From IMG/VR virus record IMGVR_UViG_3300033142_001753, positions 1-62,915 of that record: a DNA stretch of 62,915 nucleotides, one strand, 5' to 3'. The notes below the pieces were generated by a model that was given only the letters and a program-made list of their open reading frames with translations, had not been told where the DNA came from and did not search any database. Each line of letters opens with the position of its first letter. Position 1 is the stretch's first letter. The translations under genes were made by a program, and so were the position numbers. Source of the stretch: a virus (lineage: Duplodnaviria > Caudoviricetes). Positions 1 through 18,888 of the stretch are shown piece by piece.

Positions 1-62
1 TGTTGCTACAAATGACCCACTACTCCTGGACTAGTGGGTCGTAAAATGTCCTTATATATAAA
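1..62. repeat. Terminal direct repeat (identical to 62854-62915); circular assembly overlap
   Basis: tgttgctacaaatgacccac...cttatatataaa is identical at both ends and also at 17874-17935. Confidence 0.95.
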
Positions 63-366
63 GGACTTATAATCTAATGACCCACTAGTCAGACCTTAGT
101 GGGTCACAAAAAAGCCCTTATATATAAGGCACTTATTTAACTTTTGAACGAAAATGACCCGGACCCACACCTCAAAAAAAAGTAAAAATAAAAGGTGTGT
201 GTTAGAATAGTGGGTCCGGGTCATTTAGGGCATTTTAGGGTATAAGTTACTGGAATAATTCAATAAAATAGCGGGCCACTCCTCAAAAGAAGTGGGTCAT
301 TTATCTTATAACATACTGATATAATTAAGTAAAATTATGACCCACTAGTCAAAAACAGTGGCCCGC
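12..366. repeat. Origin-like array 1 of inverted GACCCAC/GTGGGTC boxes with AT-rich, IHF-like spacers
   Basis: Non-coding. Inverted pairs at 14-40, 79-105, 156-222, 273-298 and 339-364; perfect 17-bp inverted repeat aaatgacccggacccac at 152-168 / 210-226. The origin function is inferred. Confidence 0.75.
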
Positions 367-459
367 TTAGTGAGACTAAGGACACAGGCTATGAAATTGA
401 TAAAATGTCAAATATATGACGCTATTTGCCAGCAATCAAAGCATCTGTCCTACCCCAAA

Positions 460-897
460 TTAAGCGATAACCTGATCCGATAGTACATTGTTTGTCATTG
501 AGACGCCTTCCTTATATTTCTCAAAATAGAACTTACCATCCCAGGGTACCACTTCTGAGATTATACCATAATCTATAGCCACCTTATTAATATAATGTGC
601 TTTAACTCTGCGATCTAAGGTACGGATAAGCTGTCTGAAATCCTCTAAGCAGTGGCTCCGTTTGTAATGATTGCAATGCCTACAGCTTGGCATCATGTTA
701 TCTAGCCCTTCAATCTTTTTACGAAGATCTTGGAAATACTTTATCCTTGCTTCACTCACATGCTTACTAGGGGTGTGGCTGTCCCTTTGAGGTATAAGGT
801 GATCTACCTGCATTTCATTGTATAGCAAATGGCGGCCACAGTATGAGCAACGCTGGCGGTACTTATTCCAAACCTTGAGCCTGTCAGTTTTTTTCAT
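460..897 (-). CDS. HNH endonuclease
   Basis: CSYCG...QVDHLIP...NMMPSCRHCNHYK. Confidence 0.9.
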   Translation of the reverse strand: MKKTDRLKVWNKYRQRCSYCGRHLLYNEMQVDHLIPQRDSHTPSKHVSEARIKYFQDLRKKIEGLDNMMPSCRHCNHYKRSHCLEDFRQLIRTLDRRVKAHYINKVAIDYGIISEVVPWDGKFYFEKYKEGVSMTNNVLSDQVIA

Positions 898-1048
898 GAT
901 CTACCTTTAGAACATCAAAACTTAAACTAGCTATCACCAGGACATTATTGCCACAAGGACATATAACCTCAAATCGCGCATCCCCTAAGCCAGGTCAATA
1001 TTTCCGGGCAAGGTGCAAAAGATCTCTGCCACAGTATGGACATATCAC
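884..1048 (-). pseudogene. Small zinc-ribbon ORF with in-frame TGA at codon 18
   Basis: GTG start after GAGAGG; reads MICPYCGRDLLHLARKY*PGLGDARFEVICPCGNN... Confidence 0.4.
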
Positions 1049-1131
1049 GTCAGGTCCTCTCAATGATAACTCCGAGAGCAAGGCCACAGATTAAGCCAAT
1101 CATTAATCCGATGCAAAGTACTAGGCATGTT

Positions 1132-1338
1132 TCAGTCATATATTCCCCCTCTTCGATTCTTTTCCCACTCCTCCCCAATCAATACCGTAATCTTACCATC
1201 CACTTGATCCGCGACATCGACTACAGCAAAGCTCCTATCGTATGCTTCATCGATTTCATCGGGCGCCTGCATAAAACAAAATTCAACATCCCAATCCGGA
1301 TTTTCAAGTAAATAACCAACTAATTCCTTTCCTTTCAT
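1132..1338 (-). CDS. Hypothetical protein
   Basis: ATGA overlap with upstream gene; acidic phage-like ORF. Confidence 0.7.
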   Translation of the reverse strand: MKGKELVGYLLENPDWDVEFCFMQAPDEIDEAYDRSFAVVDVADQVDGKITVLIGEEWEKNRRGGIYD

Positions 1339-1781
1339 ACCAACTCCTTATGCCGAGCCACCAAGGCGGCCTTCACTTGCTCAGCGATCTCAGGTGGGAA
1401 GATCTGAAACATCTGTGCCAGGAACGGGCCATCAAGTACCAGTTCCTTAATTTGTTTTTCAGACCACCCCTCAAAACGTTGGTAGGCCAGCTTTGCATCG
1501 GCAGCAGTACCATATTTGCTCCCTGCTCTATCGAGAACAGCCTGATCTACCTTGGCCAGCTTAGCTCCATACATCTTGCGCCTAAGCTCCAAGGCCTCTT
1601 TCTCTATCTCTGATAGCTCGTCAGGGGTAAAAACCTGATAAATTATTGTATTATCTGCAAAGCCCAAAACTTCAACGGACTGTGCTCTCCGATTAACAAA
1701 CTCGTTATCTGGATTGCTTAGATACTCCAACAAAGTAATCCTATGTCTTGCTCTGCAACTCTCAGACCTTTCCTGTACCAT
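1335..1781 (-). CDS. Putative terminase small subunit / HTH DNA-binding protein
   Basis: Helical 148 aa; lies upstream of HNH and TerL across the circular junction, same strand. Confidence 0.45.
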   Translation of the reverse strand: MVQERSESCRARHRITLLEYLSNPDNEFVNRRAQSVEVLGFADNTIIYQVFTPDELSEIEKEALELRRKMYGAKLAKVDQAVLDRAGSKYGTAADAKLAYQRFEGWSEKQIKELVLDGPFLAQMFQIFPPEIAEQVKAALVARHKELV

Positions 1782-1845
1782 ATCCTATACCTATTATTTT
1801 TTGTTGGTTATTATAGTTTAAGCCTGTATCCTAAAATAAGGATTC

Positions 1846-1858
1846 TAAGTTATTGATA
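1846..1858. promoter_or_regulatory. IHF consensus site
   Basis: TAAGTTATTGATA matches YAANNNNTTGATW; intergenic, upstream of the putative TerS. Confidence 0.4.
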
Positions 1859-1881
1859 TATCTCAACATATTCAGAGCTTG

Positions 1882-2124
1882 TTATGTAATTTCATCTATC
1901 GTTTTGTTACATATTTTGCACATTACCTTTTCACCAGGTAAAAGATGTTGTTGAATATGCCTAACAAAACGGTCTGACCTGGTTAAATCTATTTGGACAG
2001 ATTTAAGCGTTTCACTAGGCGTAGCAAAGGCAGAAGGGAAAAATAATTGTTTGAACCAACCCCGATAAACAACTACCCAATCCCCTGGACTGTCTGGATG
2101 CAATAATAACAATTTTTTTTTCAT
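1882..2124 (-). CDS. Hypothetical protein with C-terminal CxxC
   Basis: ORF in the leftward gene run. Confidence 0.6.
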   Translation of the reverse strand: MKKKLLLLHPDSPGDWVVVYRGWFKQLFFPSAFATPSETLKSVQIDLTRSDRFVRHIQQHLLPGEKVMCKICNKTIDEIT

Positions 2125-2170
2125 AAATTATCCCATATTTTTAGTGTAACATATTAAAATCATTACCATA

Positions 2171-2380
2171 TCATGCGACATTTTTAGTATCACATACCAT
2201 CTCAACGCTCGTAGTAACTGTGCCCCTGTCTCTTGCAGTAAGTAATTCTATCAGATCAGAGGGTTTAGCCTGCACATAGGCCCTCTCAAGTTTCAATATT
2301 TCTTCTTCAACTTTCGTATCATAAAACTCCTTGATCAACTGATACTCTACCACATACTTTATCGTTGTTCGTACTCTCAT
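2171..2380 (-). CDS. Hypothetical protein
   Basis: ATGA overlap with the endolysin stop. Confidence 0.65.
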   Translation of the reverse strand: MRVRTTIKYVVEYQLIKEFYDTKVEEEILKLERAYVQAKPSDLIELLTARDRGTVTTSVEMVCDTKNVA

Positions 2381-2862
2381 AAGTCATCTCCTTTCAGCAT
2401 CATATCATGTAATGTTTTCCCACGATCACCTACCTGCTCGTACCACGCGCTATGTCTCATCTCTTTAGCAGCCTGAGCATAGAAACCACATTTTACAGCA
2501 TTAATCATTCTTACAAACCCCCTAAAACCTCCAGGCCCCAGGTTATACCTCATATCAATTAAAGCCCATCGCCTGTTATTGTCCAAATCATATAGTGGCT
2601 TACCAAATATTTTACACAGATCCGCTTCACATTCTGCGATATCATTCCTAAGTAACATCAGGGCCTCGATCTTCGAGAGACCTTTACTTTCCAAATTTCT
2701 GCCGTAGCCTATAGTAAGATTCCCCTTGAGGTCCGAGTAGGCCATGGACCTAAAATCCTCGTGCCTCATAATTTGCTTTTCAATCTTCGACATCTCTCCA
2801 CCATATCCTGGGGTTACCGTAATACAAGCTATTATACTGCAAAGACAGAGATAGCGCCACAT
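2377..2862 (-). CDS. Endolysin, T4-type lysozyme (GH24)
   Basis: HEDFRSMAYSDLKGNLTIGYGRNL catalytic E-D-T pattern; ALIDMRYNLG; SAWYEQVGDR. Confidence 0.9.
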   Translation of the reverse strand: MWRYLCLCSIIACITVTPGYGGEMSKIEKQIMRHEDFRSMAYSDLKGNLTIGYGRNLESKGLSKIEALMLLRNDIAECEADLCKIFGKPLYDLDNNRRWALIDMRYNLGPGGFRGFVRMINAVKCGFYAQAAKEMRHSAWYEQVGDRGKTLHDMMLKGDDL

Positions 2863-2863
2863 A

Positions 2864-3316
2864 TTAATGGATAATCAGAGTAACCAGGCGGTCTATGGCC
2901 AAGCTACCATCCTCGTCAATCAACCAATCATTGAGTATAGTATTAACATTTGCTGCATATTGCTCCCGTGATCCTCGCCATTCACACACCGGATCATTAA
3001 GTTTTAGGCCTTCAGATATAGCATGTCTTAATGCCGAGTACACAATATTTTCTGCTTTTTCTCTTTTTATTTTCATATTATGCAATACCATCTCTGTAGC
3101 TGTCATGTTTGCCTTCATGGTATCTAGTGATTTCCTTAATCTTTCAGCATCGTAGACCCAGCCTCTCCAGGTTTCTTCATCCCTGGGAACCATATCAAGC
3201 GGGTGGGACCTCTGAGTTTCTTCCTGCTCCCTAGTGATATCCTCTAAAAATTGTGCTATTAACTTTATCTGAGGATCTTTTTTACCTCTAATCCATTCGT
3301 TATATTTTGTGGTCAT
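2864..3316 (-). CDS. Hypothetical protein
   Basis: Tightly packed in the operon. Confidence 0.7.
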   Translation of the reverse strand: MTTKYNEWIRGKKDPQIKLIAQFLEDITREQEETQRSHPLDMVPRDEETWRGWVYDAERLRKSLDTMKANMTATEMVLHNMKIKREKAENIVYSALRHAISEGLKLNDPVCEWRGSREQYAANVNTILNDWLIDEDGSLAIDRLVTLIIH

Positions 3317-3499
3317 CTATGCCTCCAAGGCATCAGCCAAATCGTTGTATTTATCTAAGCCGGGATCATCAAATAGAGACTGCGCCACATATTTAACGTC
3401 ATCATTGCCGAATTTCAAAAATTCTTGATCGGCGAATTCCTCCCACTGTTCGGTAAATCTCCTCAAGTTTCGCACCTCATTTGTTGGTCTACCCTTCAT
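3317..3499 (-). CDS. Hypothetical protein
   Basis: Abuts neighbours; GGAGG RBS. Confidence 0.65.
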   Translation of the reverse strand: MKGRPTNEVRNLRRFTEQWEEFADQEFLKFGNDDVKYVAQSLFDDPGLDKYNDLADALEA

Positions 3500-3803
3500 A
3501 TTGCCTCCTTAGCCATACAATTTCCCTGCAAATTCCAGAGTACGAATAGTGCCAAACTTCGTCCAGATTATCCCTAAATGTCTCAAGAGCATAGACTGAT
3601 ACCCTATACCACCATGCAGGAGGGAACATTTTAAGCTCTATAAAGAACTCATTAAAGTCTTTACCGATCTCAATATAGAGCACCCCCGCCCTGTAGCGTC
3701 TCACCCGGCTCAACCACTTATCATCCAATACCTTCTTGGATTCAAAGTTATGCCTGGCCAAGAGATAGGCTCTACTTAGGTCTATCGCTACCAATCTTTC
3801 CAT
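3489..3803 (-). CDS. Hypothetical protein
   Basis: Overlaps neighbours in the operon. Confidence 0.6.
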   Translation of the reverse strand: MERLVAIDLSRAYLLARHNFESKKVLDDKWLSRVRRYRAGVLYIEIGKDFNEFFIELKMFPPAWWYRVSVYALETFRDNLDEVWHYSYSGICREIVWLRRQYEG

Positions 3804-3972
3804 CTTTTATCCCCTTGAGCACTCTCAAAAACTTATCAGCCATGTTTGGAATAAGCCACACCCCACCACTCCAGTTCTTTACTGTCTGGAGCCGTATACC
3901 CATCACATCTGATACCCCTTGGTTGTTCAACCCAAGCTTTTTCTTGATATTCTCAAATTCTTTACTATCCAT
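3772..3972 (-). CDS. XRE/Cro-like HTH transcriptional regulator
   Basis: IKKKLGLNNQGVSDVMGIRLQTVKNWSGG...IP. Confidence 0.8.
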   Translation of the reverse strand: MDSKEFENIKKKLGLNNQGVSDVMGIRLQTVKNWSGGVWLIPNMADKFLRVLKGIKDGKIGSDRPK

Positions 3973-4367
3973 TATATTCCACCATAATATTTTGCAATAC
4001 TGGACTCTAATTCCTGCAACAGATCGGTTACAGTATACCCTTCGATCTTCTCCATATATTCAAGTAATTCCACCATATCCTGCAACTCATCTATCGTGGC
4101 TCTTAGGGCTTCCTGTATCTCTCCCTTGTCATCCCTGGCTCTTATTTTGTCCATCTCCTCGTCTTCGAGCGCCTGCTCAGTCCAGTCTTCTTCGATAGGG
4201 CTTCCAATTTTTATACCACCGTCGCAGAGGATACATCCTGTGGATTGAAGTAATTCGCTAATTCTTGCCATTTCCACGCTTTTGCGGTATCGTTCTCCGC
4301 GCTCTGCAGCAGTGCTTTGACAAAGATCTTCCATATCTCTTAATAGTTTGTCCATGGTATCCTCCAT
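3972..4367 (-). CDS. Hypothetical acidic protein
   Basis: TAATG coupling to the HTH gene. Confidence 0.65.
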   Translation of the reverse strand: MEDTMDKLLRDMEDLCQSTAAERGERYRKSVEMARISELLQSTGCILCDGGIKIGSPIEEDWTEQALEDEEMDKIRARDDKGEIQEALRATIDELQDMVELLEYMEKIEGYTVTDLLQELESSIAKYYGGI

Positions 4368-4545
4368 ATAATTTTTTTATATCTGTTTTTTCGTAATAGA
4401 GCCTCTGTGCCCTGATAGCCGCTATAGACTCGACGAAAACAGTGCCACCGGGTGAGGTGTAGTAATAGACTGACCTAACGATAGTCCTGAGCCAATCCGT
4501 GGTTCCATCTTGATTGTAATACGTTTTTTTGCCTAATCCAATCAT
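4258..4545 (-). CDS. Hypothetical protein
   Basis: GAGG RBS; the 3' overlap with the next gene is long. Confidence 0.45.
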   Translation of the reverse strand: MIGLGKKTYYNQDGTTDWLRTIVRSVYYYTSPGGTVFVESIAAIRAQRLYYEKTDIKKLYGGYHGQTIKRYGRSLSKHCCRARRTIPQKRGNGKN

Positions 4546-4578
4546 TGCGCGTACCTCAATTTTTAGTTATAGTACTAC

Positions 4579-4830
4579 ATGATGGGTATCATACAAAACA
4601 CAAACGATGAATTCGATTATGCTGAATGCTTCGATCCTGGAGAGGGCAATAAAGCAACAACCAATGCAGGCACACAGCGCCATGGTAATCTTTATACTCC
4701 AGATTCTGGAAAATGGCAAAATCAAGATTGTCCTTATTGCATGGAGCCTTTTGCTGTCAAAAAGATGCGGTCCCGTGCTACAGGTTATCGCTTGATGTGG
4801 TACTGTACTCACTGCTACCGTGTAGTGTAA
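4579..4830 (+). CDS. Possible zinc-finger protein on the opposite strand to its neighbours
   Basis: CPYC...CTHC pairs. Confidence 0.45.
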   Translation: MMGIIQNTNDEFDYAECFDPGEGNKATTNAGTQRHGNLYTPDSGKWQNQDCPYCMEPFAVKKMRSRATGYRLMWYCTHCYRVV

Positions 4831-4875
4831 TATTACCTGTTACCCTTCCTAGATGCCTGTATCATCTAAGGTGCA

Positions 4876-4899
4876 GAATGGGCAGGTATCCCATGTACC
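4876..4899. repeat. 24-bp direct repeat, copy 1 (copy 2 at 5912-5935)
   Basis: gaatgggcaggtatcccatgtacc is identical in both places. Confidence 0.9.
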
Positions 4900-5015
4900 A
4901 TTGAAATTCCATAATCTCTTCGCGACAGCAAAGGCCCACCTCTTATTCCAGTTTGCCTCTTTGAGACGATAAAAGGTCCAATGCTGCATGTTATGTGATC
5001 CAAAATATTTCATAA

Positions 5016-5288
5016 TTAATTCTCCCAGATTAGTCTGCCAACCTTAGATCCCTTCCCTGGAATATCTCTATAAATTGCAGCCGTTCCGAAAAAACAGGCC
5101 ATATCGTCCCTGATTTCGTTTTTTGCTTTAACGAAAAATTCGTCAGACGAAACCTTGATTATCTTGACGTTTTTCGGCATTGAAATATCATATATCAAGG
5201 CTGTATTTATACTCATCGCGATCTCTTTGTCGATCATCTCTTGGTTTGCGTAATACACAGACATATCTTCATAACTGTTGTCTTTCAT
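5016..5288 (-). CDS. Hypothetical early protein
   Basis: AAGGAG RBS and its own promoter. Confidence 0.75.
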   Translation of the reverse strand: MKDNSYEDMSVYYANQEMIDKEIAMSINTALIYDISMPKNVKIIKVSSDEFFVKAKNEIRDDMACFFGTAAIYRDIPGKGSKVGRLIWEN

Positions 5289-5323
5289 ATTTTGCTCCTT
5301 TTAATTTTTTGTGTGTTAAATAC

Positions 5324-5351
5324 AAGATACATTAAAGGTGCAGAATGTCAA
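5324..5351 (-). promoter_or_regulatory. Sigma70-like promoter
   Basis: TTGACA-16-TATCTT; near-duplicate 300 bp away. Confidence 0.65.
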
Positions 5352-5425
5352 TAGCAAAATATCAACTTTTTTAAAGAAAAAACAAGTTATTTTTTTAATG
5401 CAGGAAAAACAGGAGGTTGAGCAGC

Positions 5426-5593
5426 TTATTCTCTGTGTAAAATTACTGTGAATCCACATATATAATCCCTTCCCCAATTTTCTTTAGGAGGACAGAGATA
5501 TTTTCTGCAAGGAACAACAATATGTCGTTTGCCCGTTATGAGCCTTTCCATTTTAGCATATTGTCTAGCTGCTGTTGATTTGTTAAAAAACAT
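5426..5593 (-). CDS. Hypothetical early protein (start MFFNK)
   Basis: AAGGAGG RBS precedes the ATG at 5593. Confidence 0.65.
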   Translation of the reverse strand: MFFNKSTAARQYAKMERLITGKRHIVVPCRKYLCPPKENWGRDYICGFTVILHRE

Positions 5594-5623
5594 CTCAATT
5601 TTCCTCCTTTTGTGTCTAAATCC

Positions 5624-5651
5624 AAGATACACTAAGGGAGAAAAATGTCAA
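5624..5651 (-). promoter_or_regulatory. Sigma70-like promoter
   Basis: TTGACA-16-TATCTT; homologous to 5324-5351. Confidence 0.65.
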
Positions 5652-5654
5652 CTA

Positions 5655-5930
5655 CTATTCTCTGTACTTTTCTACTCTTTTTCTAAATCTTTCGATATCC
5701 TGTCCAGCTATATCGCACCAAAATAGGCAATAAGGCTCAGATTCCTTCGAAAAAAAGAAGTCCAGGGCATTATTTTTTAACCTCTTCCCTTCACCGGTCG
5801 AGGTATCCTTATAACACACCTTACGAAGACCTGTGCGATCTATTCCGCTTACGTCATCGACCGCATCCATTAGTAGTGTGAGTGCTAAAATTTTGCAGTT
5901 CATATCGAGCGGAATGGGCAGGTATCCCAT
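5655..5930 (-). CDS. Hypothetical protein
   Basis: ALDFFFS...FWCDIAG pattern seen in small phage proteins. Confidence 0.65.
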   Translation of the reverse strand: MGYLPIPLDMNCKILALTLLMDAVDDVSGIDRTGLRKVCYKDTSTGEGKRLKNNALDFFFSKESEPYCLFWCDIAGQDIERFRKRVEKYRE

Positions 5931-6256
5931 GTACCGCAGATGAAGGTTTTTTTGTCCTGATTGGAAATAAATACCTCGCTTTTTTCCTTTTCTAATATTT
6001 TATTAATATCCGCAGTATGCCGGGGTGCAGCATTTCTCGGAGACAGGCCACGGCCTGAATTCCCGTGTTGCTGGGTACACCACAATAGGCGGACCCTACC
6101 CAGGTACTGGATCTCTTTAAGCCATACCTTGTTCGGTTTTATCGATTTCCGGCCGCACCAGGATAATAGGGTATCCACATCCTCGAATACTATAGTTTTA
6201 CAATGATCACATTCTAAGCACTCTATTTTTTTGCCGCTTCCTTTTTTACGTCCCAT
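5900..6256 (-). CDS. Hypothetical Cys-rich protein
   Basis: CLECDHC; GGAG RBS. Confidence 0.65.
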   Translation of the reverse strand: MGRKKGSGKKIECLECDHCKTIVFEDVDTLLSWCGRKSIKPNKVWLKEIQYLGRVRLLWCTQQHGNSGRGLSPRNAAPRHTADINKILEKEKSEVFISNQDKKTFICGTWDTCPFRSI

Positions 6257-6415
6257 ATTATTTTATCTCCTACCTCTTAATTTTCTATAATATGTTGTTT
6301 TGCTTATTCCCAGTGCCTCTATCGCAACCGTTACAGTGGGATAAAGTTTTCCATTCGCCATTGTTGCCTTGGCACTTTCCATTTACAGTGTTCATAATTT
6401 TATAAATTCCACAAT

Positions 6416-7945: not shown

Positions 7946-8088
7946 CGTTGTATTGCCTCTATCTTGGAATACAGAATTATAAAGGAAGCTTGCTGTCGTA
8001 TATATTCTTCGTCACGTATGATATCTGACAAATATCTGCCGTATTTGTTGCCAAAATAATCTACAAACCATATAATTTTAGGCATCCT

Positions 8089-8376
8089 TTATCCTATCGC
8101 CGAAACTTTCGTCGTATGCCCTGGCATGTCCTGGACAACATTGGGGAACAACTCTTTCTGCCCATCGATAGTAAATCCCACGGCATCTTTGATTCTCTCT
8201 TTCACGAATCCTATTCCTACTTTAATATCGAGCTTTGGGCCTGTCCGCTTGATCTTTAATGGCAAAGATATTAAGACACTGCCGTCTTCAGCCATCACGA
8301 GCTCTATTTCTTTTGCGTAACTAGTCAAAAGACCGCCCACGCTCTTCTCGATTTGTTTGACTACATCATATGTCAT
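8089..8376 (-). CDS. Hypothetical protein
   Basis: ORF in the replication operon. Confidence 0.7.
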   Translation of the reverse strand: MTYDVVKQIEKSVGGLLTSYAKEIELVMAEDGSVLISLPLKIKRTGPKLDIKVGIGFVKERIKDAVGFTIDGQKELFPNVVQDMPGHTTKVSAIG

Positions 8377-8430
8377 CTGTCCCCCGGTATCTGGCTGGCC
8401 TATGGCCAGCCGGAGATTTTTATTTGTTTA

Positions 8431-9833: not shown

Positions 9834-9834
9834 T

Positions 9835-10014: not shown

Positions 10015-10580
10015 TATTTTTTCCTAACCCCTACCCTATTCACAGTTCTGACCTTAATACCATCATTCTTCCCCGGGACATCCCCAGTCACCTCAAACAC
10101 TTCCTTGAGTACCGAAGTAAGGGACCTGCAGTTGACTGTCAGTTTTATTATTTCCTTAAACCCTGCATCCTTTATCCACTTATGTGCTGCCCCTGTTTCT
10201 GCAGCATCGACCGTAGCATATGAATCGACTTTCCGAAAATAGGTCCACCCCTTAGAGCTAAAGGAATCCATCTCAAGACCCTCAAGCACACCAAAGAGTG
10301 TAGCCTCTTGTTCAGCTAACTTTGTCTTGCGGGCCTTGATTTTGTTTTCAGCGGCCTTGATGCTTCTCTTTTCTTCGCCATACTCCTCAGCGAGTTTTAT
10401 CATCTCGACAGGTAAGGCCTCCTCTTGTGATTCATTAAAAAAGCCATCGAGGTCATGTAATGATATCCCTACATTAGGAACGACAGTACCCGATGGTTCG
10501 GGATACTCAGGTAGAGGCTCCCTCCTCTCTGGCTTACAATCTGTTAGTGGTATCGATTCCATATCTTTAAATTCTAACAT
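10014..10580 (-). CDS. Conserved phage replication-module protein (coiled coil)
   Basis: Coiled-coil N-half; WIKDAGFKEIIKLTVN motif. Confidence 0.7.
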   Translation of the reverse strand: MLEFKDMESIPLTDCKPERREPLPEYPEPSGTVVPNVGISLHDLDGFFNESQEEALPVEMIKLAEEYGEEKRSIKAAENKIKARKTKLAEQEATLFGVLEGLEMDSFSSKGWTYFRKVDSYATVDAAETGAAHKWIKDAGFKEIIKLTVNCRSLTSVLKEVFEVTGDVPGKNDGIKVRTVNRVGVRKK

Positions 10581-10592
10581 TTTTGCCCCCTA

Positions 10593-10620
10593 TGTTACCA
10601 CTTATTAATAAATGGTAACA
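10593..10620. promoter_or_regulatory. 28-bp near-perfect palindrome (operator or hairpin)
   Basis: TGTTACCACTTATTAATAAATGGTAACA, one mismatch; intergenic. Confidence 0.5.
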
Positions 10621-10640
10621 CCTTGTCTTTTCATATCCTA

Positions 10641-12038
10641 TTACAGAACGCTTTTTTGATCTTCGTAGCTATCAACAACCCTGCTTTCTCTCAACAGTAT
10701 ACAGCTATCGCCGGCCTTTTTCTCTGTACCGACCATCTCTGCCACAACTTGGAACCCTGCCTCAACTAATTCTGCAAAAAGCTTTTCCCTATTTACCTCA
10801 TCTATACTCTGTGCGTCAGGTACGAAAATGTACTTCAATTCTGGATTAGTGGCAGCGGCCATCTTAATACCGGCTCTCAAGATCTCGCCCTTCGAAAAAT
10901 AGGTTTTGTTGAATGACCGGCCATCGACCTCTAGTTCACCTTTTTCATTTATAGTAATATTCGAGAATGGCAGGTTGCAGGACTTGAGGTATTCAATACG
11001 ATCTTTTTCAAGAGCCTGGTATTCGCAGTCTTTTTGGTCATGCAGCACGACAGCCTCAGCATGTCTTTTATTTGCTACAGTATATGCTGTCCATACGGCT
11101 GCTTCCTTATTTTGCTCTTGTGCCCTCGTTATAGCCTCTACTATATCACTTGTATCAGTTTTTTCTACTTCCGGCATAGGAATATCGGTTTCCATCGGCG
11201 CAGCTACGACAGGAAGCTCCTCTAATGAAGACTCCTGTACCTTTATTTTCGTTGCAGTAATTGCAATTTCATCATTAAGTTGAGCTACCTTGTTTTCCAT
11301 TACCTTAATATTGTACTCACATATATCCCTTCTGCGCTGTATACTATTCTGCTCTTTATTGTGAGCAATAGCCTTTTGGTACAGCTCTTCTCTGTGCTCC
11401 CTGGCTGAGTTTAAGGCCACCTCATTCTTTTTGTCGATAGCAACTTTTCTGTTAAGGAGTTCCTGCACATCAACGGAATCCGCCTTCGTCATTTCGCCAT
11501 AGTCGTGTAATATACTCAGGGCTTGTTTTACGTCATATCCCAATTCTCGCCTTTGGTTGTAGACTACCTTTTTTCGAGCATCAATTTCTGCCGTATCAAT
11601 ACCGAGTACCGTAGCCTGCTCCTTTGGTGTAAGTTGAGCAAACCCCTCTGGATTGATGGAGAAAATATTGAAAATTTTATCCACGAAGTCGGGGCCAAGG
11701 TCCCGGCCATCGGAAGCAGCAACGCTTAAGGTAGTAGCTCCTTTTGTCATCTTGCGCTGGAGGAAGATGTCGATATTTTCTTTCTCGTCATGGAGAGTAA
11801 TTTGACCTACAGCAGACTTGCCATATTTTCCGATAAAACGGAAGCGGTCTGCATGGAGTACCTTCTTACCAGTCTTTGCTATCCCCTCCAAGATAAACCA
11901 TATAGCATTTAAGCCACAAGTTGTTTTACCTGATCCATTCTCGCCCACTAGATAGGTGACCTGGTCCTTAAAGTCAATCTTTAATTCATTTACTGTTGCA
12001 AAATTCTTTAACAAAATTTGTTTGATTTTTAAATCCAT
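10641..12038 (-). CDS. Rad50/SbcC-like ATPase with coiled coil
   Basis: LKNF, GENGSGKT Walker A, long coiled coil, FSKGE signature-like motif; start at MDLKIK. Confidence 0.8.
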   Translation of the reverse strand: MDLKIKQILLKNFATVNELKIDFKDQVTYLVGENGSGKTTCGLNAIWFILEGIAKTGKKVLHADRFRFIGKYGKSAVGQITLHDEKENIDIFLQRKMTKGATTLSVAASDGRDLGPDFVDKIFNIFSINPEGFAQLTPKEQATVLGIDTAEIDARKKVVYNQRRELGYDVKQALSILHDYGEMTKADSVDVQELLNRKVAIDKKNEVALNSAREHREELYQKAIAHNKEQNSIQRRRDICEYNIKVMENKVAQLNDEIAITATKIKVQESSLEELPVVAAPMETDIPMPEVEKTDTSDIVEAITRAQEQNKEAAVWTAYTVANKRHAEAVVLHDQKDCEYQALEKDRIEYLKSCNLPFSNITINEKGELEVDGRSFNKTYFSKGEILRAGIKMAAATNPELKYIFVPDAQSIDEVNREKLFAELVEAGFQVVAEMVGTEKKAGDSCILLRESRVVDSYEDQKSVL

Positions 12039-12051
12039 AACTTTCACCCCT

Positions 12052-12309
12052 TTAGCATGCATTATAGGAAGCACAAATAATCCCCTCAGGTATACCACTG
12101 CTCGCTACGCCTATTTCTTCAACCACTACATCTTTGGCATCACACCATGTAGACGGATACACCGCACACTCCCTCCCTTCCCAGTCGTCACTCTCCCCAG
12201 GGTGTATCATTCTAGCCTCATCCTCAGAAGCAGCACACACAATAGCAGAATCAAGGATACCATATCCGCAGTTAATGGTTTGTGAAATTAAATATAAATT
12301 TATGACCAC
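12052..12309 (-). CDS. Hypothetical phage protein
   Basis: DSAIVCAASEDEARMIHP...ICASYNA, a recurrent phage family pattern. Confidence 0.75.
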   Translation of the reverse strand: MVINLYLISQTINCGYGILDSAIVCAASEDEARMIHPGESDDWEGRECAVYPSTWCDAKDVVVEEIGVASSGIPEGIICASYNAC

Positions 12310-12315
12310 TCCCCC

Positions 12316-12546
12316 CTATTCGTTGAGTATACTTTTCTCAACCCTCACAGAATCACCTTCGACTCCGTAATTTGCCAAGTATATCCAATTTTCATTCTTC
12401 ATTTCTTTTGTTAATTCTTGCTCAATAAGATCATAACTTTCAGGCACAAATTCTCTCGCATATTCTATTGCACTATCCGATGATAAAAATACCTCAACGA
12501 CTTCGTCAACATGATGGTCACAACAAATTGCAATATAAATTTTCAC
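12316..12546 (-). CDS. Hypothetical protein
   Basis: AAGGAG RBS, GTG start. Confidence 0.7.
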   Translation of the reverse strand: MKIYIAICCDHHVDEVVEVFLSSDSAIEYAREFVPESYDLIEQELTKEMKNENWIYLANYGVEGDSVRVEKSILNE

Positions 12547-12567
12547 TGTATCTCCTTATTAAGTGCT

Positions 12568-12595
12568 ATTATACACCATCTACGGGGTTTTGCAA
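12568..12595 (-). promoter_or_regulatory. Sigma70-like promoter
   Basis: TTGCAA-16-TATAAT. Confidence 0.55.
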
Positions 12596-12598
12596 GGA

Positions 12599-14233
12599 TT
12601 ATTTTTTGAGGTAATTCAGGATAGCCATACTAACATCTTTTTTATTTTTTACAGCTTCCAGGATAACCGGGTCTAGAGTTTTGTCAGCCAGGAGGTAGTA
12701 ATAGGAACATTTAGTCTTTTGTCCTTGCCTATATATCCTGTCCTTCAACTGCTTGGCATTATCATAACTGTAAGAATTGCTATAACAGATACTCTCACTA
12801 CAATTAACCAAAGTATGGCCAAAACCTACACTCTTAGGGTGACAAATGGCGTACTGCAGGTTACCAGCTTTGAAGGATTTTAGTGTTTTTTGTTTTTCAT
12901 TCTCCGGTACTGTACCATTCAATACGCCACACCCAAGCCTTTTCTTTTTTAAAGCTTCTGAGATAATTCTTGCCTCTTCCTGAAATTCTATCCAAATTAG
13001 GACCTGCTTAGGCCCTATATCCTCAAGGAGAGACAAGAGTTCGTTGAGTTTTGTGTTTCCTAAATGGTGGGCTTTTGTTGTCTTCTTTATTCTGCCACTT
13101 TTTTCTTCAGTTGTTGTATCAAGGATAAAGCCACTCGATATCTGCCGGAGCTTCATTTGAGCCGTTACCGCACTTGGACTCGTAATCTTCTCGCCACTTT
13201 CCAGGATAGTTATTAAATTTGCCTTAATATCCCTGTAGTGTGTCCACTCCTTCTCAGATAGCTTAAAAATCCTCTTCGATTCAACAGTACCGGGCAGATC
13301 TATGACATCCTCTTTATCTACATATTCAGCTACAGACCTAATGTCCTCTACAAGCTTTTTCTTGTATTCTTCCCTCACCTTCCAGGTATAACCGCCGTAC
13401 CCCGAGGGTAAAAAATATTTTGTACGGAATTTGTAAAACGACTTGCCCCACAACAGGGGATCAAGTATCCTAATCTGCGTCCAGTATTCGAGCATATTAT
13501 TCGGGGCCGGAACTCCAGATAGCTCATAGACATATTTTACTGTATCGCAGAATTCAATCACCTTATCGGCGGTATTGCCTCGCTTAAAAGTGCGAATCCT
13601 TGCGCTTTCATCAAGGACAACTACTTTGTATCCTGCTCTCCCTAGTTTTTTGTCGATAGTTCTGAAAGATTCATAGTTAATGATACCAATATCTTTTTCG
13701 AGTGCCTTATTGAATGCCCCCGGACTCCTCTTTTTTGCTGCCCGCAGATTGACAACATCAAAGGCCCTGTATTGATCCTGGATTGTTTTAATTTCAGGTG
13801 ACGGATTTTTTATCCATGCCAAGGGGTTGTTGATTTCTTCCAACCAGGCGCCCTCTATGAGTGACAGAGGGCAGATGATTAAAGTTTTTACTTTATGATA
13901 TCGATATATCTCTAATGACAATAATGTCTTGCCAACCCCAGTGTCATGGTATATACCCATCCTATCCTGCCGCGCAGCCCTTCTTAATGCCGTTTTTTGA
14001 TGATCCATTAAGAAAGACGGAACAACAAGCTCCCTAGTTTCTTCTCTCGGTTCGGGAGGTAATACGCCGGGGAAAAGGCGGTTCAAGCAAATTCGGTTCA
14101 TGTAAACATCTTCGGTGGACCACTCTTTTTTTATCTTACTGAATTTCATCGCCATGTTTTGGCAGTGTTTAACTTTTTCCTTATCATAAGGAAATTTTAA
14201 TATCAGTCGATTTTTTTCTCTTCTTAATTGCAT
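12599..14233 (-). CDS. SNF2-family (SF2) helicase
   Basis: DTGVGKT, LIICP, VLDES, LSGVP, KLRQISSGF, DRIYRQGQ. Confidence 0.92.
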   Translation of the reverse strand: MQLRREKNRLILKFPYDKEKVKHCQNMAMKFSKIKKEWSTEDVYMNRICLNRLFPGVLPPEPREETRELVVPSFLMDHQKTALRRAARQDRMGIYHDTGVGKTLLSLEIYRYHKVKTLIICPLSLIEGAWLEEINNPLAWIKNPSPEIKTIQDQYRAFDVVNLRAAKKRSPGAFNKALEKDIGIINYESFRTIDKKLGRAGYKVVVLDESARIRTFKRGNTADKVIEFCDTVKYVYELSGVPAPNNMLEYWTQIRILDPLLWGKSFYKFRTKYFLPSGYGGYTWKVREEYKKKLVEDIRSVAEYVDKEDVIDLPGTVESKRIFKLSEKEWTHYRDIKANLITILESGEKITSPSAVTAQMKLRQISSGFILDTTTEEKSGRIKKTTKAHHLGNTKLNELLSLLEDIGPKQVLIWIEFQEEARIISEALKKKRLGCGVLNGTVPENEKQKTLKSFKAGNLQYAICHPKSVGFGHTLVNCSESICYSNSYSYDNAKQLKDRIYRQGQKTKCSYYYLLADKTLDPVILEAVKNKKDVSMAILNYLKK

Positions 14234-14712
14234 AGCGGTTCCTTAATAAAATTAAATATCCACCCCCTATGGGATGACTGATTACCTCGAAGGCAACGCG
14301 AAATACACACATTACATAATCCATGCTGTCTAGCAAATTCACACTGATTATTTTTTTTGTATATTTCACCTGTTTTTTTATTTAAAGCACAAAACCACTT
14401 CATATCCCTCTTATTCCCTTCCTGTTCAAGCCAACTCGCCCACTTACAATTCTCGGGCTCATAGTTACCGTTATTATTGATACGTTCTAATGTTAATCCA
14501 CCAGGTTTCTCTCCCATATCTTTCAAGAAAACACTGAAAGATTTTAACCATTTATCACATACCTTAATACCACGGCCACCATAATTTTTGTAAGCATGGC
14601 TTTTAGGATTCAGGCAGCGGGCTTTCATGTTACTCCATGCAATATATTCTGATGTAGATTTACTATATGAACAATTACCGTGACTTTCTGTAAGGCATCC
14701 ACAAGATTGCAC
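14224..14712 (-). CDS. HNH-type homing endonuclease-like protein
   Basis: SCGC, WSNMKARC, YGGRGIKVC, LERINNNGNYEPENCKWAS. Confidence 0.85.
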   Translation of the reverse strand: MQSCGCLTESHGNCSYSKSTSEYIAWSNMKARCLNPKSHAYKNYGGRGIKVCDKWLKSFSVFLKDMGEKPGGLTLERINNNGNYEPENCKWASWLEQEGNKRDMKWFCALNKKTGEIYKKNNQCEFARQHGLCNVCISRCLRGNQSSHRGWIFNFIKEPLCN

Positions 14713-14729
14713 CTCCTATAATTCACAAC

Positions 14730-14758
14730 ATTCTACTACCACCCCATCATCAAGTCAA
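14730..14758 (-). promoter_or_regulatory. Leftward promoter of divergent pair
   Basis: TTGACT-17-TAGAAT. Confidence 0.7.
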
Positions 14759-14771
14759 GGTCTTGTCCATC

Positions 14772-14809
14772 ACACTATAGTTGACGTCCAGGCAATTATA
14801 GTGTAAAAT
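14772..14809 (+). promoter_or_regulatory. Rightward promoter overlapped by an inverted repeat (operator)
   Basis: TTGACG-17-TAAAAT at 14781-14809; ACACTATAGTTG...CAATTATAGTGT. Confidence 0.7.
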
Positions 14810-14830
14810 ATTTGGCTGAGGTGCAAAAAA

Positions 14831-15199
14831 ATGCCAAAAAAAAGATCATTGATACCTCTATTACCAGGGGTGATGAACTTCCATTTAAATGACGACGACC
14901 GCCTGGAAGCCAAGATCCAATGTAGTATCATGAATTTCTTGAAAACTGTTCCCTTTTCAAATCTTGCTAAAATAGCTCAAGGTCCGTGGAGCAAGGACGG
15001 AGTATCCGATATTGTGGGCTGTTATTATGGTAGGTCCCTGGTTATGGAAGTAAAGCGCAGAACAACGGAGCCTACTCCTCTGCAAGTTGAATATCTCAAT
15101 AATAACGTTGAAGCCCTGGGCTTCAGTGCTGTAGTTCGGTCCGTGGCTGATGTTAGGGAAATGCTAGGTGTAGTAAGGGAACAGCTTTGCATCCAATAA
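14831..15199 (+). CDS. VRR-NUC (PD-(D/E)xK) nuclease / resolvase
   Basis: EAKIQ, GVSDI, MEVK, PTPLQ, VVRSV. Confidence 0.88.
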   Translation: MPKKRSLIPLLPGVMNFHLNDDDRLEAKIQCSIMNFLKTVPFSNLAKIAQGPWSKDGVSDIVGCYYGRSLVMEVKRRTTEPTPLQVEYLNNNVEALGFSAVVRSVADVREMLGVVREQLCIQ

Positions 15200-15993
15200 C
15201 TTTTGGCAGCCTGTTCTCTGGCATAGGTGGTTTCGATCTTGGCCTCGAAAGGGCAGGTATGACCTGCAAGTGGCAATCCGAGATTGATCCTTTTTGTAAT
15301 AAAGTACTCGCCAAGCACTGGCCTACGGTAAAAAGATATGGTAACATTAAGGAAATCGGAAAGCATAACCTCGAATCAGTTGACCTTATTTGCGGAGGAT
15401 TCCCTTGCCAGCCATTCAGCGTTGCCGGGAAACAGAGAGGCTCGGAGGATAACCGCTATCTCTGGCCGGAAATGCTTAGGGTTATTACGGAACTTAACCC
15501 CCATTGGATCATTGGTGAGAATGTGCCTGGAATCATCCCTTTGGAACTCGACAAAGTGCTTTCTGACCTGGAAGGTGAGGGGTACGAAACACAGACGCTT
15601 ATTATTCCAGCTTGCGCCGTCGATGCCCTCCACAGAAGGGATAGGGTCTGGATTTTGGGCTACTCCGCAGAGCAGGGCAGACAGCCGAAGCGAGGGCGGG
15701 GAAAAGAGCAGAAGTGGAAGACAAATCAATTTACATCATCAAGTCAAGATGCTACCAACGCCAAGCGCATCTATGATGACAGCACAGGATATGGAGCAGG
15801 CAAAGACGGCTGGCAACAGTCCAAAGAGACCAAAATATTCAGAAACGGGTATAAGTGGTTCCCTGAACCCTCAGTGGGTAGAGTGGCTGATGGGGTTCCC
15901 CGAAGGGTGGACAGACTTAGATCGTTAGGAAATGCTGTAGTCCCCCAAGTAGTTGAAGTTATAGGACGATTCATTATGAAAATAGAGGATTAA
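15187..15993 (+). CDS. C5 cytosine DNA methyltransferase, large (alpha) subunit
   Basis: Motifs I SLFSGIGG, IV GGFPCQPFS, VI ENVPG, VIII HRRDRVW, X LGNAVVP; no motif IX. Confidence 0.93.
   Translation: MHPITFGSLFSGIGGFDLGLERAGMTCKWQSEIDPFCNKVLAKHWPTVKRYGNIKEIGKHNLESVDLICGGFPCQPFSVAGKQRGSEDNRYLWPEMLRVITELNPHWIIGENVPGIIPLELDKVLSDLEGEGYETQTLIIPACAVDALHRRDRVWILGYSAEQGRQPKRGRGKEQKWKTNQFTSSSQDATNAKRIYDDSTGYGAGKDGWQQSKETKIFRNGYKWFPEPSVGRVADGVPRRVDRLRSLGNAVVPQVVEVIGRFIMKIED
15338..15928 (+). CDS. C5 methyltransferase small (beta) subunit nested in the +1 frame
   Basis: 196-aa open frame with WATP/LPTP and the motif IX-like LNPQWVEWLMGFPEGWT. Confidence 0.8.
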   Translation: MVTLRKSESITSNQLTLFAEDSLASHSALPGNREARRITAISGRKCLGLLRNLTPIGSLVRMCLESSLWNSTKCFLTWKVRGTKHRRLLFQLAPSMPSTEGIGSGFWATPQSRADSRSEGGEKSRSGRQINLHHQVKMLPTPSASMMTAQDMEQAKTAGNSPKRPKYSETGISGSLNPQWVEWLMGFPEGWTDLDR

Positions 15994-15995
15994 AC

Positions 15996-16157
15996 ATGAG
16001 TTTTGATACTATTCCCGAGGACGCTAGAGAAGGTTACCCCTGCGAATGTGGCGGGAGCATTACCTTGACAGATGGAAAATGGTGCTGCGATTCCTGTGAT
16101 TTTGAAAAACCTAACAAGGAAAGCATACGTAAAGCGACAAGCACAACGGAGAATTAA
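15996..16157 (+). CDS. Small zinc-ribbon protein (53 aa)
   Basis: GAGG RBS; CECGG...WCCDSC. Confidence 0.65.
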   Translation: MSFDTIPEDAREGYPCECGGSITLTDGKWCCDSCDFEKPNKESIRKATSTTEN

Positions 16158-16162
16158 AAGAT

Positions 16163-16417
16163 ATGAGTAATATGCTATTTATAGGCGGCACTAGAGACAA
16201 GCAAAAACTATATGTACCCTACAATAATGGCAATCCTGTCCTTAAAATTTCAATACCGGCCGATAAAAATATTAATGGTTTCGCTGTTTATGAAGCTGAA
16301 ATATATATCAAAAAAGAAATATGGGAGAAAAAGCAGCACATTTTTTCTGTTATGGTGAAAGACGGATCAGGGGAGTTATTGAATATTTTTTTAGATGAAT
16401 ACAACAAAAGGAATTAA
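16163..16417 (+). CDS. Hypothetical protein
   Basis: GGAG RBS; packed in the operon. Confidence 0.65.
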   Translation: MSNMLFIGGTRDKQKLYVPYNNGNPVLKISIPADKNINGFAVYEAEIYIKKEIWEKKQHIFSVMVKDGSGELLNIFLDEYNKRN

Positions 16418-16419
16418 AT

Positions 16420-17829
16420 ATGAGGGTACTAGAAGCCGCTCTGCGGTATAGAGAACTTGGATGGTCCGTTATTCCCATGAAGACAGGAAAGAATGAAGAG
16501 ACCGGCAAAGATGAAAAAAAGGTTCCTCATGTAAAGTGGAAAAAATATCAAACCGAACTTCCGAGTGAAGGTGATCTAAGATATTGGTTCGGCAAAAAAT
16601 GGCCAGATGCTAACATAGCCCTAATATGTGGTGAAGTAAGCGGAGTATTTGCTATCGACTTCGATAGTCGAAAGGCCCTAGAACATTATAAGGCTGTCTA
16701 TGATCCCGATGTCGAAGATACTATGTGCCAGACTACCGGAAGAGATGGTACAGGATTACATGCTCTATTCCATACAGTAGGCCATAGTATTCCACTGGTT
16801 CAACCCATACTAGAAAAGACTGATCTTAAGGGCGAGGGATCATATATAATAATTGAACCATCGGTCCATGAATCCGGCAGGCATTATAAATGGGGACACC
16901 TGAATCCTCTAACAGACGGTACCACGGATGTCCTGGATCCTCCAAGTGGATTTTTTAATATGCTACAGGATCACGAAAAGAGGAAGGAAGAAAAGGAGAA
17001 AGGAAAAAACGCCACACTAGGGGTTACTAAAAAAATAGGCAAAAATTCCGAAGGCTGGGAACAAGAAATTCTTATGGGCGTTACCGAGGGAGAAAGAGAC
17101 AACGCCGCCGCCAAGCTCGCCGGCCTATATCTCGCAAAAGATTATGAACAAAAAGATACCATGTCCTTACTATTAGGGTGGAACGAAAGAAATGTACCAC
17201 CTCTAAGCGAAAAGGATATCAAGAAGGTTGTACGGTCAATCTACGGTGAGCATGCCAAGGAGGCCGCGAGAGGAATTAGTGAAGCAGTTGAGAAAATAAC
17301 TATCCTACGATACCCAGACGGCAAAAATAAATATAAGATGTCGCTCGGACAAGGGCGGTCCTGTATGTTGACTATGGAAGATTTGTTGTCAAGCAGGCGA
17401 ACCACTGTAAGAATCGCTGATACCACAAGGGCTGTTTTTTATCCACCGAAACAGGGCAAATGGCTGGCCCTGGTCCAAATCTGGCTAAATGCAGCCGAAG
17501 AGAAAATTATTAGTGTTGAGGAATCGGAGCTCGGGGTTATTAAGGAAATTATTGCGGAATGGCTTGTCCAGTGGATAAGGCAAAAAGACTCAGAGCATAT
17601 TGATCATTCAGCCATGCTAAAGAATTGCTGTATCGTCCAGGACGGTAAACTTTACTTTACCCTACATCATATAGAAGAAGACCTAAGATTTAAAAATATC
17701 CGCATGACCCGTACCATGTTGTGTGAACTACTTCGGAGCTTGGGAGCCGGGGTCACTGAGCCTAGAGTACGTTTTGGAAAATCAAGGAGTCGCACCTGGG
17801 ATATAATGGAAGACTATTTTGAAAAATAG
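16420..17829 (+). CDS. Bifunctional primase-polymerase (Prim-Pol) with PriCT domain
   Basis: GWSVIP, NIALICG, AIDFD, GLH, DLKGEGSYII.PSVH, EGERDNA. Confidence 0.9.
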   Translation: MRVLEAALRYRELGWSVIPMKTGKNEETGKDEKKVPHVKWKKYQTELPSEGDLRYWFGKKWPDANIALICGEVSGVFAIDFDSRKALEHYKAVYDPDVEDTMCQTTGRDGTGLHALFHTVGHSIPLVQPILEKTDLKGEGSYIIIEPSVHESGRHYKWGHLNPLTDGTTDVLDPPSGFFNMLQDHEKRKEEKEKGKNATLGVTKKIGKNSEGWEQEILMGVTEGERDNAAAKLAGLYLAKDYEQKDTMSLLLGWNERNVPPLSEKDIKKVVRSIYGEHAKEAARGISEAVEKITILRYPDGKNKYKMSLGQGRSCMLTMEDLLSSRRTTVRIADTTRAVFYPPKQGKWLALVQIWLNAAEEKIISVEESELGVIKEIIAEWLVQWIRQKDSEHIDHSAMLKNCCIVQDGKLYFTLHHIEEDLRFKNIRMTRTMLCELLRSLGAGVTEPRVRFGKSRSRTWDIMEDYFEK

Positions 17830-17935
17830 CCTTATATATAGGGGACTTATAGTTTATTCTTCTCCACACGTAATGTTGCTACAAATGACCCACTACTCCT
17901 GGACTAGTGGGTCGTAAAATGTCCTTATATATAAA
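17822..17935. repeat. 114-bp exact direct repeat (other copy 62802-62915)
   Basis: aaaaatagccttatatataggggac...gtccttatatataaa is identical in both copies. Confidence 0.95.
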
Positions 17936-18157
17936 AAAATGACCCGGACCCACTTCTTTAGAAAAAATAAAGTTTAAACTAGTGGGTCCGGGTCATTTAG
18001 GCTATTGGGTGTATTAACATACTGATATAATTCAATAAAACAGTGACCCACGCCTAAAAGGTGGTGGGTCACAAATTCTATAACGCGCTGATATAATTCA
18101 GTAAAATGTGGACCCACTAGTCTAAAAGTGGTGGGTCTGCAAAATAAATACTTGATT
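17885..18157. repeat. Origin-like array 2 of inverted GACCCAC/GTGGGTC boxes
   Basis: Pairs at 17887-17913, 17941-17994, 18045-18070 and 18111-18137; IHF-like boxes at 18015, 18081 and 18145; directly after the primase. Confidence 0.75.
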
Positions 18158-18887: not shown

Positions 18888-18888
18888 G

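Follow-up and report, generated by a model that had tools for sequence, protein, structure and literature searches.

Paired hairpin arrays, beside a primase-polymerase gene and upstream of the terminase gene, in a clade of uncultured phages: a candidate replication origin and a second origin-like site

In phage P4, ori and crr are two separated sets of binding sites for the C-terminal domain of the alpha primase and act in cis; the P4 sites are short iterons, and alpha carries a helicase domain. Phage SPP1, as portrayed in the relevant portions of PMC6316719, has two similarly organised origins that are both targets of gp38 and lie about 13 kb from each other; oriL is within the initiator gene, and oriR is within a non-coding part of the late region that also holds three moron genes. 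According to portions of the same article and of PMC3485210, a fork stalled at the gp38-oriR complex is thought to trigger the switch to concatemers via break-induced recombination. The origin of pRN1 is described in a section of PMC4234260 as a stem-loop of about 100 bp downstream of the primase-polymerase (prim-pol) gene, in which structure is conserved over sequence, and that section also reports similar stem-loops after such genes in phages. Here, we analyse the IMG/VR virus record IMGVR_UViG_3300033142_001753 (62,915 bp; this whole stretch of DNA is the window referred to below), which contains two paralogous hairpin-rich arrays, array 2 starting at the stop codon of a prim-pol gene and array 1 lying upstream of the gene for the large terminase subunit (TerL). 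The best explanation that we can offer for these arrays, to which we give about even chances as a whole, is that of one circular genome with two cis-acting elements, viz., a predicted origin bound by the prim-pol and a second site of the same kind.

The two arrays resemble the SPP1 origins in being similar cis regions that are well separated (17.9 kb apart in 62.9 kb here and about 13 kb apart in 44 kb in SPP1), one at the initiator gene and the other in a late, non-coding region by moron-type genes, and in possessing an AT-rich element. SPP1, however, employs direct repeats, gp38 and a DnaB-type helicase with its loader, whereas the candidate binder here is the C-terminal domain of a prim-pol of the archaeo-eukaryotic primase (AEP) type; a further difference is that parts of the arrays are kept identical here. 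The resemblance to pRN1 is that of a large conserved stem-loop coming directly after an AEP prim-pol gene and retaining its structure as the sequence changes, but where pRN1 has one stem-loop, a whole array is present here, twice. The invariant core of the half-site described below includes CAC/GTG, the start motif of the pRN1 primase, which is a resemblance only. The two-origin idea thus has close known parallels and does not amount to a new kind of replicon.

The repeat and the two arrays

The record is classed in IMG/VR as "direct terminal repeats, 100% complete". Its terminal overlap is 62 nt long, and removing it leaves a circle of 62,853 bp; the overlap is not unique to the contig ends, as positions 1-62 are identical to 62854-62915 and also to a third copy at 17874-17935. 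All of it lies within a longer repeat, hereafter R. As the original prediction had it, 62802-62915 and 17822-17935 are identical letter for letter over 114 bp in direct orientation, with the identity breaking precisely at the edges 62802/17822 and 62915/17935, and with one mismatch the repeat stretches to 117 nt (17819-17935 and 62799-62915). The copy belonging to array 2 (17822-17935, plus strand) begins, again as predicted, in the last prim-pol codons, 8 nt before the end of the ORF (16420-17829; stop codon 17827-17829), and comprises box 1 with the TATATATA palindrome, a spacer, the hairpin H1 (17887-17913) and box 2. The copy belonging to array 1 (62802-62915, plus strand) has its last 62 nt doubling as the overlap with 1-62. 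A crossover between the two copies would give circles of 17,873 and 44,980 bp, sums that had been proposed earlier and that we find to be correct. The only junction present inside this contig is that from the primase through R to array 2, and the contig ends at the edge of R. Since the overlap is wholly within R, this assembly alone does not separate one circle of 62,853 bp from two of 17,873 and 44,980 bp, an ambiguity that had been rightly foreseen.

In agreement with the earlier description, each copy of R heads its own diverged GACCCAC/GTGGGTC array. Past R the two remain alignable at 75-78% identity (151-202 with 17936-17987, and 202-355 with 17974-18127). The arrays are paralogous and co-oriented and share a common module order, array 1 running from 62802 through the contig ends to 388 and array 2 from 17822 to 18140. 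Read on the prim-pol strand, the first module is the TATATATA palindrome with covarying flanks and an A run before it, followed by a spacer, hairpin H1 (GACCCACTACT...ACTAGTGGGTC) and a second palindrome, at which position array 1 has one additional hairpin and palindrome. Next comes a long hairpin with two half-sites per arm (TGACCCGGACCCAC) and an AT-rich loop of 14-41 nt between the arms, and the final modules are two units, each consisting of an AT-rich TGnTATAAT-like block and, a few bases on, a GACCCAC hairpin. The arms of the short hairpins carry the half-site G(A/G)NCCAC. Half-sites occur as inverted pairs of variable spacing and not as direct iterons.

The body of array 1 (1-388, plus strand) contains hairpins at 14-40 and 79-105, TATATATA palindromes at about 50-66 and 116-130, the long hairpin at 152-226 (41-nt AT-rich loop; -19.5 kcal/mol, z -8.2), two degenerate hairpins at 270-300 and 337-366 (z -2.2), preceded by -10-like blocks at about 250-262 and 313-325, and a tail motif CTTAGTG..ACTAAGGACACAGGC at 366-388. 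That of array 2 (17936-18140, plus strand) consists of the long hairpin (17937-17998; 62 nt with an AT-rich loop, 108 nt past the prim-pol stop; -21.3 kcal/mol, z -8.4) and the two units, with TGnTATAAT-like blocks at 18019-18031 and 18088-18100 and GACCCAC hairpins at 18043-18072 and 18111-18137. The inner arm of the long hairpin is preserved in all 10 of the aligned arrays. All 18 GACCCAC sites of the window, counting both strands, fall at 14-345, 17887-18137 and 62867-62893, the last range being the overlap copy; the expectation is 4.47 +/- 2.24 hits, and 18 was reached in none of 100 shuffles. After removal of redundancy, 16 sites remain, every one of them within the arrays.

Relatives were gathered by scans with primase and TerL alignments. 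The 69 hits among primase homologs come from metagenomes only. No match was obtained by megablast of positions 1-20000 against GenBank phages, and no relative by a scan of viral contigs with the single primase protein or by a scan of genome contigs with the primase alignment; pattern scans of viral contigs recovered neither the promoter-hairpin unit nor a 32-nt piece of R (0 each), and the tail of array 1 of the relative G001 was recovered in G001 itself only. Two relatives are complete and of the direct terminal repeat class, viz., G001 (58,827 bp) and G002 (56,547 bp). Fragments are available from the primase side (L007 and L023, which are one record, L020, L021, L022, L025 and L026) and from the TerL side (L031, L032 and L033), of which L021 and L033 may be one virus. 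Out of 98 ORFs in the genome studied here, 54 match G001 and 49 match G002, with conserved order. In every relative that reaches the places concerned, an array with the same module order is found after the primase stop and upstream of orf59 (a small conserved ORF) and TerL. The original prediction had regarded absence of array 1 from relatives as evidence against itself, and array 1 is present in relatives, upstream of TerL. As a separate observation on G001, a 158-nt segment is repeated at 91% identity in the plus-strand cargo ORFs past its array 1 (13752-13909 and 14112-14266; L014), which indicates a duplicated small gene.

Comparison of the arrays within and between genomes reveals a consistent pattern. 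The two arrays of the genome studied here match each other by blastn with 342-376 bits, and match the arrays of other genomes with 0-70 bits. Likewise, the G001 arrays score 427-454 bits mutually and 63-189 bits against arrays of other lineages, while reaching 503-617 bits with L025, which represents a G001-like strain. The G002 arrays share 117 blastn bits, with a longest exact stretch of 21 nt. The exact segments comprise different modules in different lineages, from box 1 to box 2 here (114 bp) and the long hairpin with the two following units in G001, whose exact repeat is 188 bp long (14472-14659 being identical to 58701-58777 plus 1-111). A third lineage shows 93.9% identity between the L033 array upstream of TerL and the 180 nt that follow the primase stop in L021, and both contigs end there. 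The half-site also varies by lineage, being GACCCAC here, GGGCCAC/GGCCACT in G001 and G002 and GGTCCAC/GGGACAC in L020, and the version is common to both arrays of one genome; 12 of the 17 GGGCCAC sites in G001 are within its arrays. Likeness within genomes that is far greater than likeness between genomes suggests repeated gene conversion, ongoing recombination and a shared trans-acting factor, and on these sequence comparisons we consider it highly probable that the arrays evolve in concert. The exact 114 bp of R would be the trace of a recent gene conversion from array to array, and conversion recurring across the clade would keep both arrays matched to one protein.

The prim-pol C-terminal domain as a candidate array binder

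The prim-pol gene (16420-17829, plus strand) encodes 469 amino acids, in which a Prim-Pol domain (PF09250, E 2.9e-21) and a PriCT_1 domain (E 5.2e-13) are followed by a 190-residue C-terminal domain (residues 280-469; 17257-17826). No helicase family was matched in the 469-residue protein; the helicases are separate genes, at 6416-7945 and 12599-14233. In G002 and L032, a free-standing paralog of the C-terminal domain is encoded directly 3' of array 1 on the array strand (36% identity, E 5e-36). Right after this paralog, G002 also carries tandem 11-mers of the AACCATAAACC type and then a terminator-like hairpin (about 24240-24320, reverse complement).

A profile search with the C-terminal domain retrieved 64 representatives among 1.84 billion proteins, of which 59 were scanned for families, the remaining five being already among the primase homolog hits. 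In the scanned set the domain follows, on the C-terminal side, Prim-Pol (26), AEP-TOTE (5), a DnaG-type zinc ribbon (1) and RepB_primase_C (1); two have PriCT_1 only, and 24 have no family, eight of these being of stand-alone size (174-203 residues). Such swapping among primases with unrelated catalytic domains, together with the stand-alone occurrence of the domain, is in keeping with a targeting role. The AlphaFold model of the domain (pLDDT 85.6) has as its best Foldseek matches winged-helix proteins that bind oriT or origins, viz., TcpK (PDB identifiers 5vfx and 5vfy), SaPIbov1 Rep (8tch) and PriRep1 (7pds), with E-values of 0.02-0.25. The TcpK match (E 0.02, TM score 0.57-0.60 on the target) is a lead only, and a winged-helix-like fold of the domain is weakly supported by the predicted model. 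The GACCCAC version of the half-site, unique to this lineage, coincides with differences at basic positions in the last helix and wing of the domain (LRS, GAG and SRS here, as against LRK/R, GAK/R and SRI in seven others), which is a single coincidence and no more.

We infer that the arrays are most likely binding sites for one phage protein, with the C-terminal domain of the prim-pol as the candidate. That the arrays serve as an origin or as initiator-binding sites is, by analogy with the systems described above, about an even prospect. The two-origin phage of the original prediction is hence the best-supported reading, while the origin activity contained in it is argued from comparison and analogy. 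The features that suggest it are the position beside the prim-pol gene, the long AT-looped hairpin, the co-evolution of the half-sites and the SPP1 and pRN1 precedents. Under this scheme, array 2, which adjoins the initiator gene, would be the origin, and array 1, in the late region, would be a second origin-like site. Breaks at protein-bound arrays would be repaired with the other array as template, and the homogenisation of the arrays would follow from this.

Several observations weigh against assigning an origin role to the arrays and their binding to the prim-pol. The fold matches are weak, the best E-value being 0.02 and none of the 500 matches listed having E <= 0.001; the C-terminal domain has no Pfam match, and no PDB sequence hit was found below E 0.17. 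The compensatory changes in the long hairpin represent one lineage event that is visible in both arrays of this genome. The repeats here are inverted, hairpin-forming and variably spaced, unlike the direct iterons of SPP1, and the pRN1 protein ORF904 has an SF3 helicase domain, which the prim-pol here lacks. Furthermore, the arrays bear -10-like blocks and are followed in relatives by plus-strand genes, so they may control transcription instead or also.

Genome topology and competing explanations

The packaged genome is, judging from the relatives, very likely one circle. The G002 contig ends within virion genes and traverses both arrays, and it does so as a single circle with no repeat longer than 21 nt and with an identical circular order, i.e. 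HNH-(cargo)-array 1-orf59-TerL and primase-array 2-zinc ribbon. In addition, a Pfam scan of 82 ORFs found no tyrosine or serine recombinase, integrase or resolvase, and upon splitting, the 45-kb circle would be left without primase and helicases and the 17.9-kb circle without packaging genes. These findings favour one circle and speak against the bipartite replicon or resolvable cointegrate that had been put forward as an alternative, in which a 17.9-kb replication and lysis circle and a 45-kb virion circle would interconvert at R and the contig would be one traversal of a figure of eight. In favour of such a pair of circles are the terminal overlap within R and the contig end at its edge, and G001 is equally ambiguous, its 50-nt terminal overlap lying within its own internal repeat. 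The contigs of the two genomes thus both end inside repeats, and their own closure does not count as independent evidence for one circle. The junctions that they hold are complementary, the G001 contig containing that from TerL through array 1 to R and the contig studied here that from the primase through R to array 2. Gene conversion also shows that the arrays recombine. Against one circle stands L025, a metagenome contig of 2,094 bp. Its identity to G001 is 96.1% across the primase and the head of array 2, and past the shared repeat it continues at 92.9% into the tail of the G001 array 1 and a plus-strand cargo gene. This hybrid junction, from primase and array 2 head through R to array 1 tail and cargo gene, is the one expected of the small circle; it could reflect such a circle, unequal exchange in concatemers or a mis-join across the 144-188-bp repeat, and L025, with 2.1 kb in all, may be an assembly chimera. 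Taking both sides together, we judge two replicons to be very improbable, and equally so a genome made reversibly divisible by its paired arrays into a self-replicating circle of about 14-18 kb (primase, helicases, lysis and one array) and a virion circle of about 45 kb, a case in which the L025 junction would be the trace of a sub-genomic replicon and selection for splitting and rejoining would keep the repeat exact throughout the clade. Rare recombinant molecules with a split genome may nevertheless occur, in keeping with the one hybrid-junction contig from a relative. Least probable of all, to the point of being scarcely credible, is that the exact repeat is an artefact of assembly, either collapsed diverged segments or a chimeric join. 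The contig end does coincide with the repeat edge, but independent assemblies from other samples contain like repeats (188 bp in G001, and the 180 nt at 93.9% of L021 and L033), and the arrays are still 75-78% alike past the exact part.

Granting one circle, the arrays could instead control transcription, as tandem promoters and operator hairpins, perhaps with minus-strand terminators, for plus-strand early or moron genes, with a regulator acting on G(A/G)NCCAC in two co-regulated units. The TGnTATAAT-like blocks stand before the last two hairpins of both arrays, one of them scoring 10/12 with the TG, and a 12/12 sigma-70 promoter and a gene come after array 2; past array 1, plus-strand genes are present in relatives (in G001 small ORFs, in G002 and L032 the free-standing C-terminal-domain paralog, and in L031 a zinc-ribbon-like ORF), and the TATATATA palindrome with its T run scores as terminator-like on the minus strand. 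In the genome studied here, however, no plus-strand gene follows array 1, which meets the 3' end of the HNH gene, and the promoter-like hits are scarcely above those in shuffles (6 against 2.9 +/- 1.5 and 4 against 2.5 +/- 1.7). The proposal also does not account for the long hairpin with its AT-rich loop or for an array start that is fixed at the primase stop codon, and we regard it as a possible but doubtful account of the arrays. It is compatible with an origin role, and transcription-activated origins exist in lambda, T7 and T4. A further candidate role is that of packaging or terminus signals, i.e. cos or pac sites or ends of virion DNA, the duplication of which would be accidental or would offer a choice of starts for packaging. 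Array 1 sits between the HNH gene and TerL, which is where cos is placed in HNH-dependent cos phages, and contig ends fall in or at an array in six of 12 related records (the present genome, G001, L007/L023, L021, L022 and L033). The repeats themselves account for these ends, though, and array 2, which is tied to the primase stop codon in every relative, is separated from array 1 by 17.9 kb and surrounded by genes of early type; moreover, an HNH gene is missing beside array 1 of G001, and no small terminase subunit (TerS) has been identified here. Packaging signals are accordingly an improbable explanation, and the origin with a second origin-like site is the one that we retain.

Gene setting, host and significance

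Genes on the minus strand from 14712 down to 460 encode an SNF2 helicase, an AAA/SbcC-like ATPase, an exonuclease-like protein, a UvrD-like helicase, lysozyme and an HNH endonuclease. The HNH gene (460-897, minus strand) is the last of this replication and lysis block before the terminase, and its 3' end abuts array 1. In the circle, the minus-strand block continues past array 1, which is oriented away from TerL, into orf59 (62547-62726; phrog_2423) and TerL (59872-62538), and from there into the virion block with portal, major capsid protein and others, down to 22961. The first large gene in the virion block is TerL, with an orientation divergent from that of array 1. The plus-strand genes (14831-22053) encode an endonuclease, a C5 methyltransferase and the prim-pol before array 2 and a zinc-ribbon protein, an exonuclease, a dATP/dGTP diphosphohydrolase domain and a repeat protein after it. 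The zinc-ribbon gene (18257-18457) is the first past array 2, at a position conserved in relatives, and just 5' of it is the sigma-70-type promoter (18203-18231; TTGACA-17-TATAAT, 12/12). The gene contents that the original prediction gave to its two circles are borne out for the prim-pol, the UvrD-like and SNF2 helicases, the C5-methyltransferase, lysozyme, TerL, portal and major capsid protein. Its putative TerS (1335-1781) is not, as this ORF received no Pfam, PHROG or Atlas assignment.

Some of these genes have features of their own. TerL is 888 residues long, as against 547 in G001 and 544 in G002, and the surplus matches LAGLIDADG/homing-endonuclease families, i.e. it is an intein missing from the two relatives; the TerL genes of L034 and L035 seem interrupted too. 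The last 16 TerL codons (...GAGGFFDGCDFQAFPE) are copied 443 nt downstream at 98% identity (59436-59484 and 59879-59927), and the copies flank an ORF with an RF-1 domain (ArfB-like; 59502-59930, minus strand) that overlaps the 3' end of TerL and looks like a gene cassette inserted into it with copying of the target end. About 20 tandem 33-nt units, 88-92% alike, at 21340-22098 in the ORF 21145-22053 (plus strand) encode the 11-residue repeat protein that closes the plus-strand block, and about 12 tandem 21-nt units (a 7-residue repeat) are present at 34037-34325 in a 1054-residue ORF of the virion block (33625-36789, minus strand). A protein with a Tad2-like (Thoeris anti-defence 2) domain (53888-54289, minus strand; Pfam E 9.7e-18) is encoded between portal and head genes. 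The virion block also contains a tRNA-Met gene (48356-48429, minus strand), which was the only hit of any kind with Rfam at gathering scores and with which ARAGORN agrees, and beside it a 117-residue ORF (47839-48192) matching the C-terminal glycyl-radical end of the anaerobic ribonucleotide reductase NrdD. An ORF of 2201 residues (23337-29942, minus strand) is without matches in Pfam, in PHROG or among PDB sequences, and its Atlas features resemble large polyvalent proteins (LPD39/LPD38, ART-PolyVal), which is a lead only. Hairpin promoters for a virion RNA polymerase, as in N4, were considered and rejected, the 2201-residue virion protein being without a PDB sequence match.

The host is likely bacterial, as suggested by the lysozyme, the Tad2-like domain, an SU10-type adaptor, the sigma-70 promoter with its 12/12 match and a terminator consisting of a hairpin and T run at about 52830-52860. 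The major capsid protein (50767-51744, minus strand), portal and adaptor are 57%, 57% and 52% identical, respectively, to those of 'Methanosarcina virus MetMV' (MK170447.1). The capsid match prompted us to consider the TATATATA boxes as archaeal promoters, a possibility that we discarded in view of the bacterial-type genes, the sigma-70 promoter, the T-run terminator, the lack of comparable arrays near the MetMV terminase and the in silico assignment of the MetMV host. This host call may deserve a second look.

The genome studied here shows concretely how a record can be classed as "direct terminal repeat, complete" on the strength of an internal repeat, so that closure has to be argued from relatives, and as such it is a warning on completeness calls made from terminal overlaps. 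Along with this warning, the points of interest are the concerted evolution of the arrays across the clade and the portable C-terminal domain. The comparison defines a conserved two-array architecture with a helicase-less prim-pol for a clade of uncultured podovirus-like phages, and it supplies a testable candidate origin and second origin-like site, arranged in the manner of SPP1 oriL and oriR and built of pRN1-like hairpins. That different segments have been homogenised in different lineages implies frequent exchange between distant cis elements of one phage genome. Such exchange must also yield sub-genomic circles or duplications, and defective or satellite-like replicons might arise in this way.

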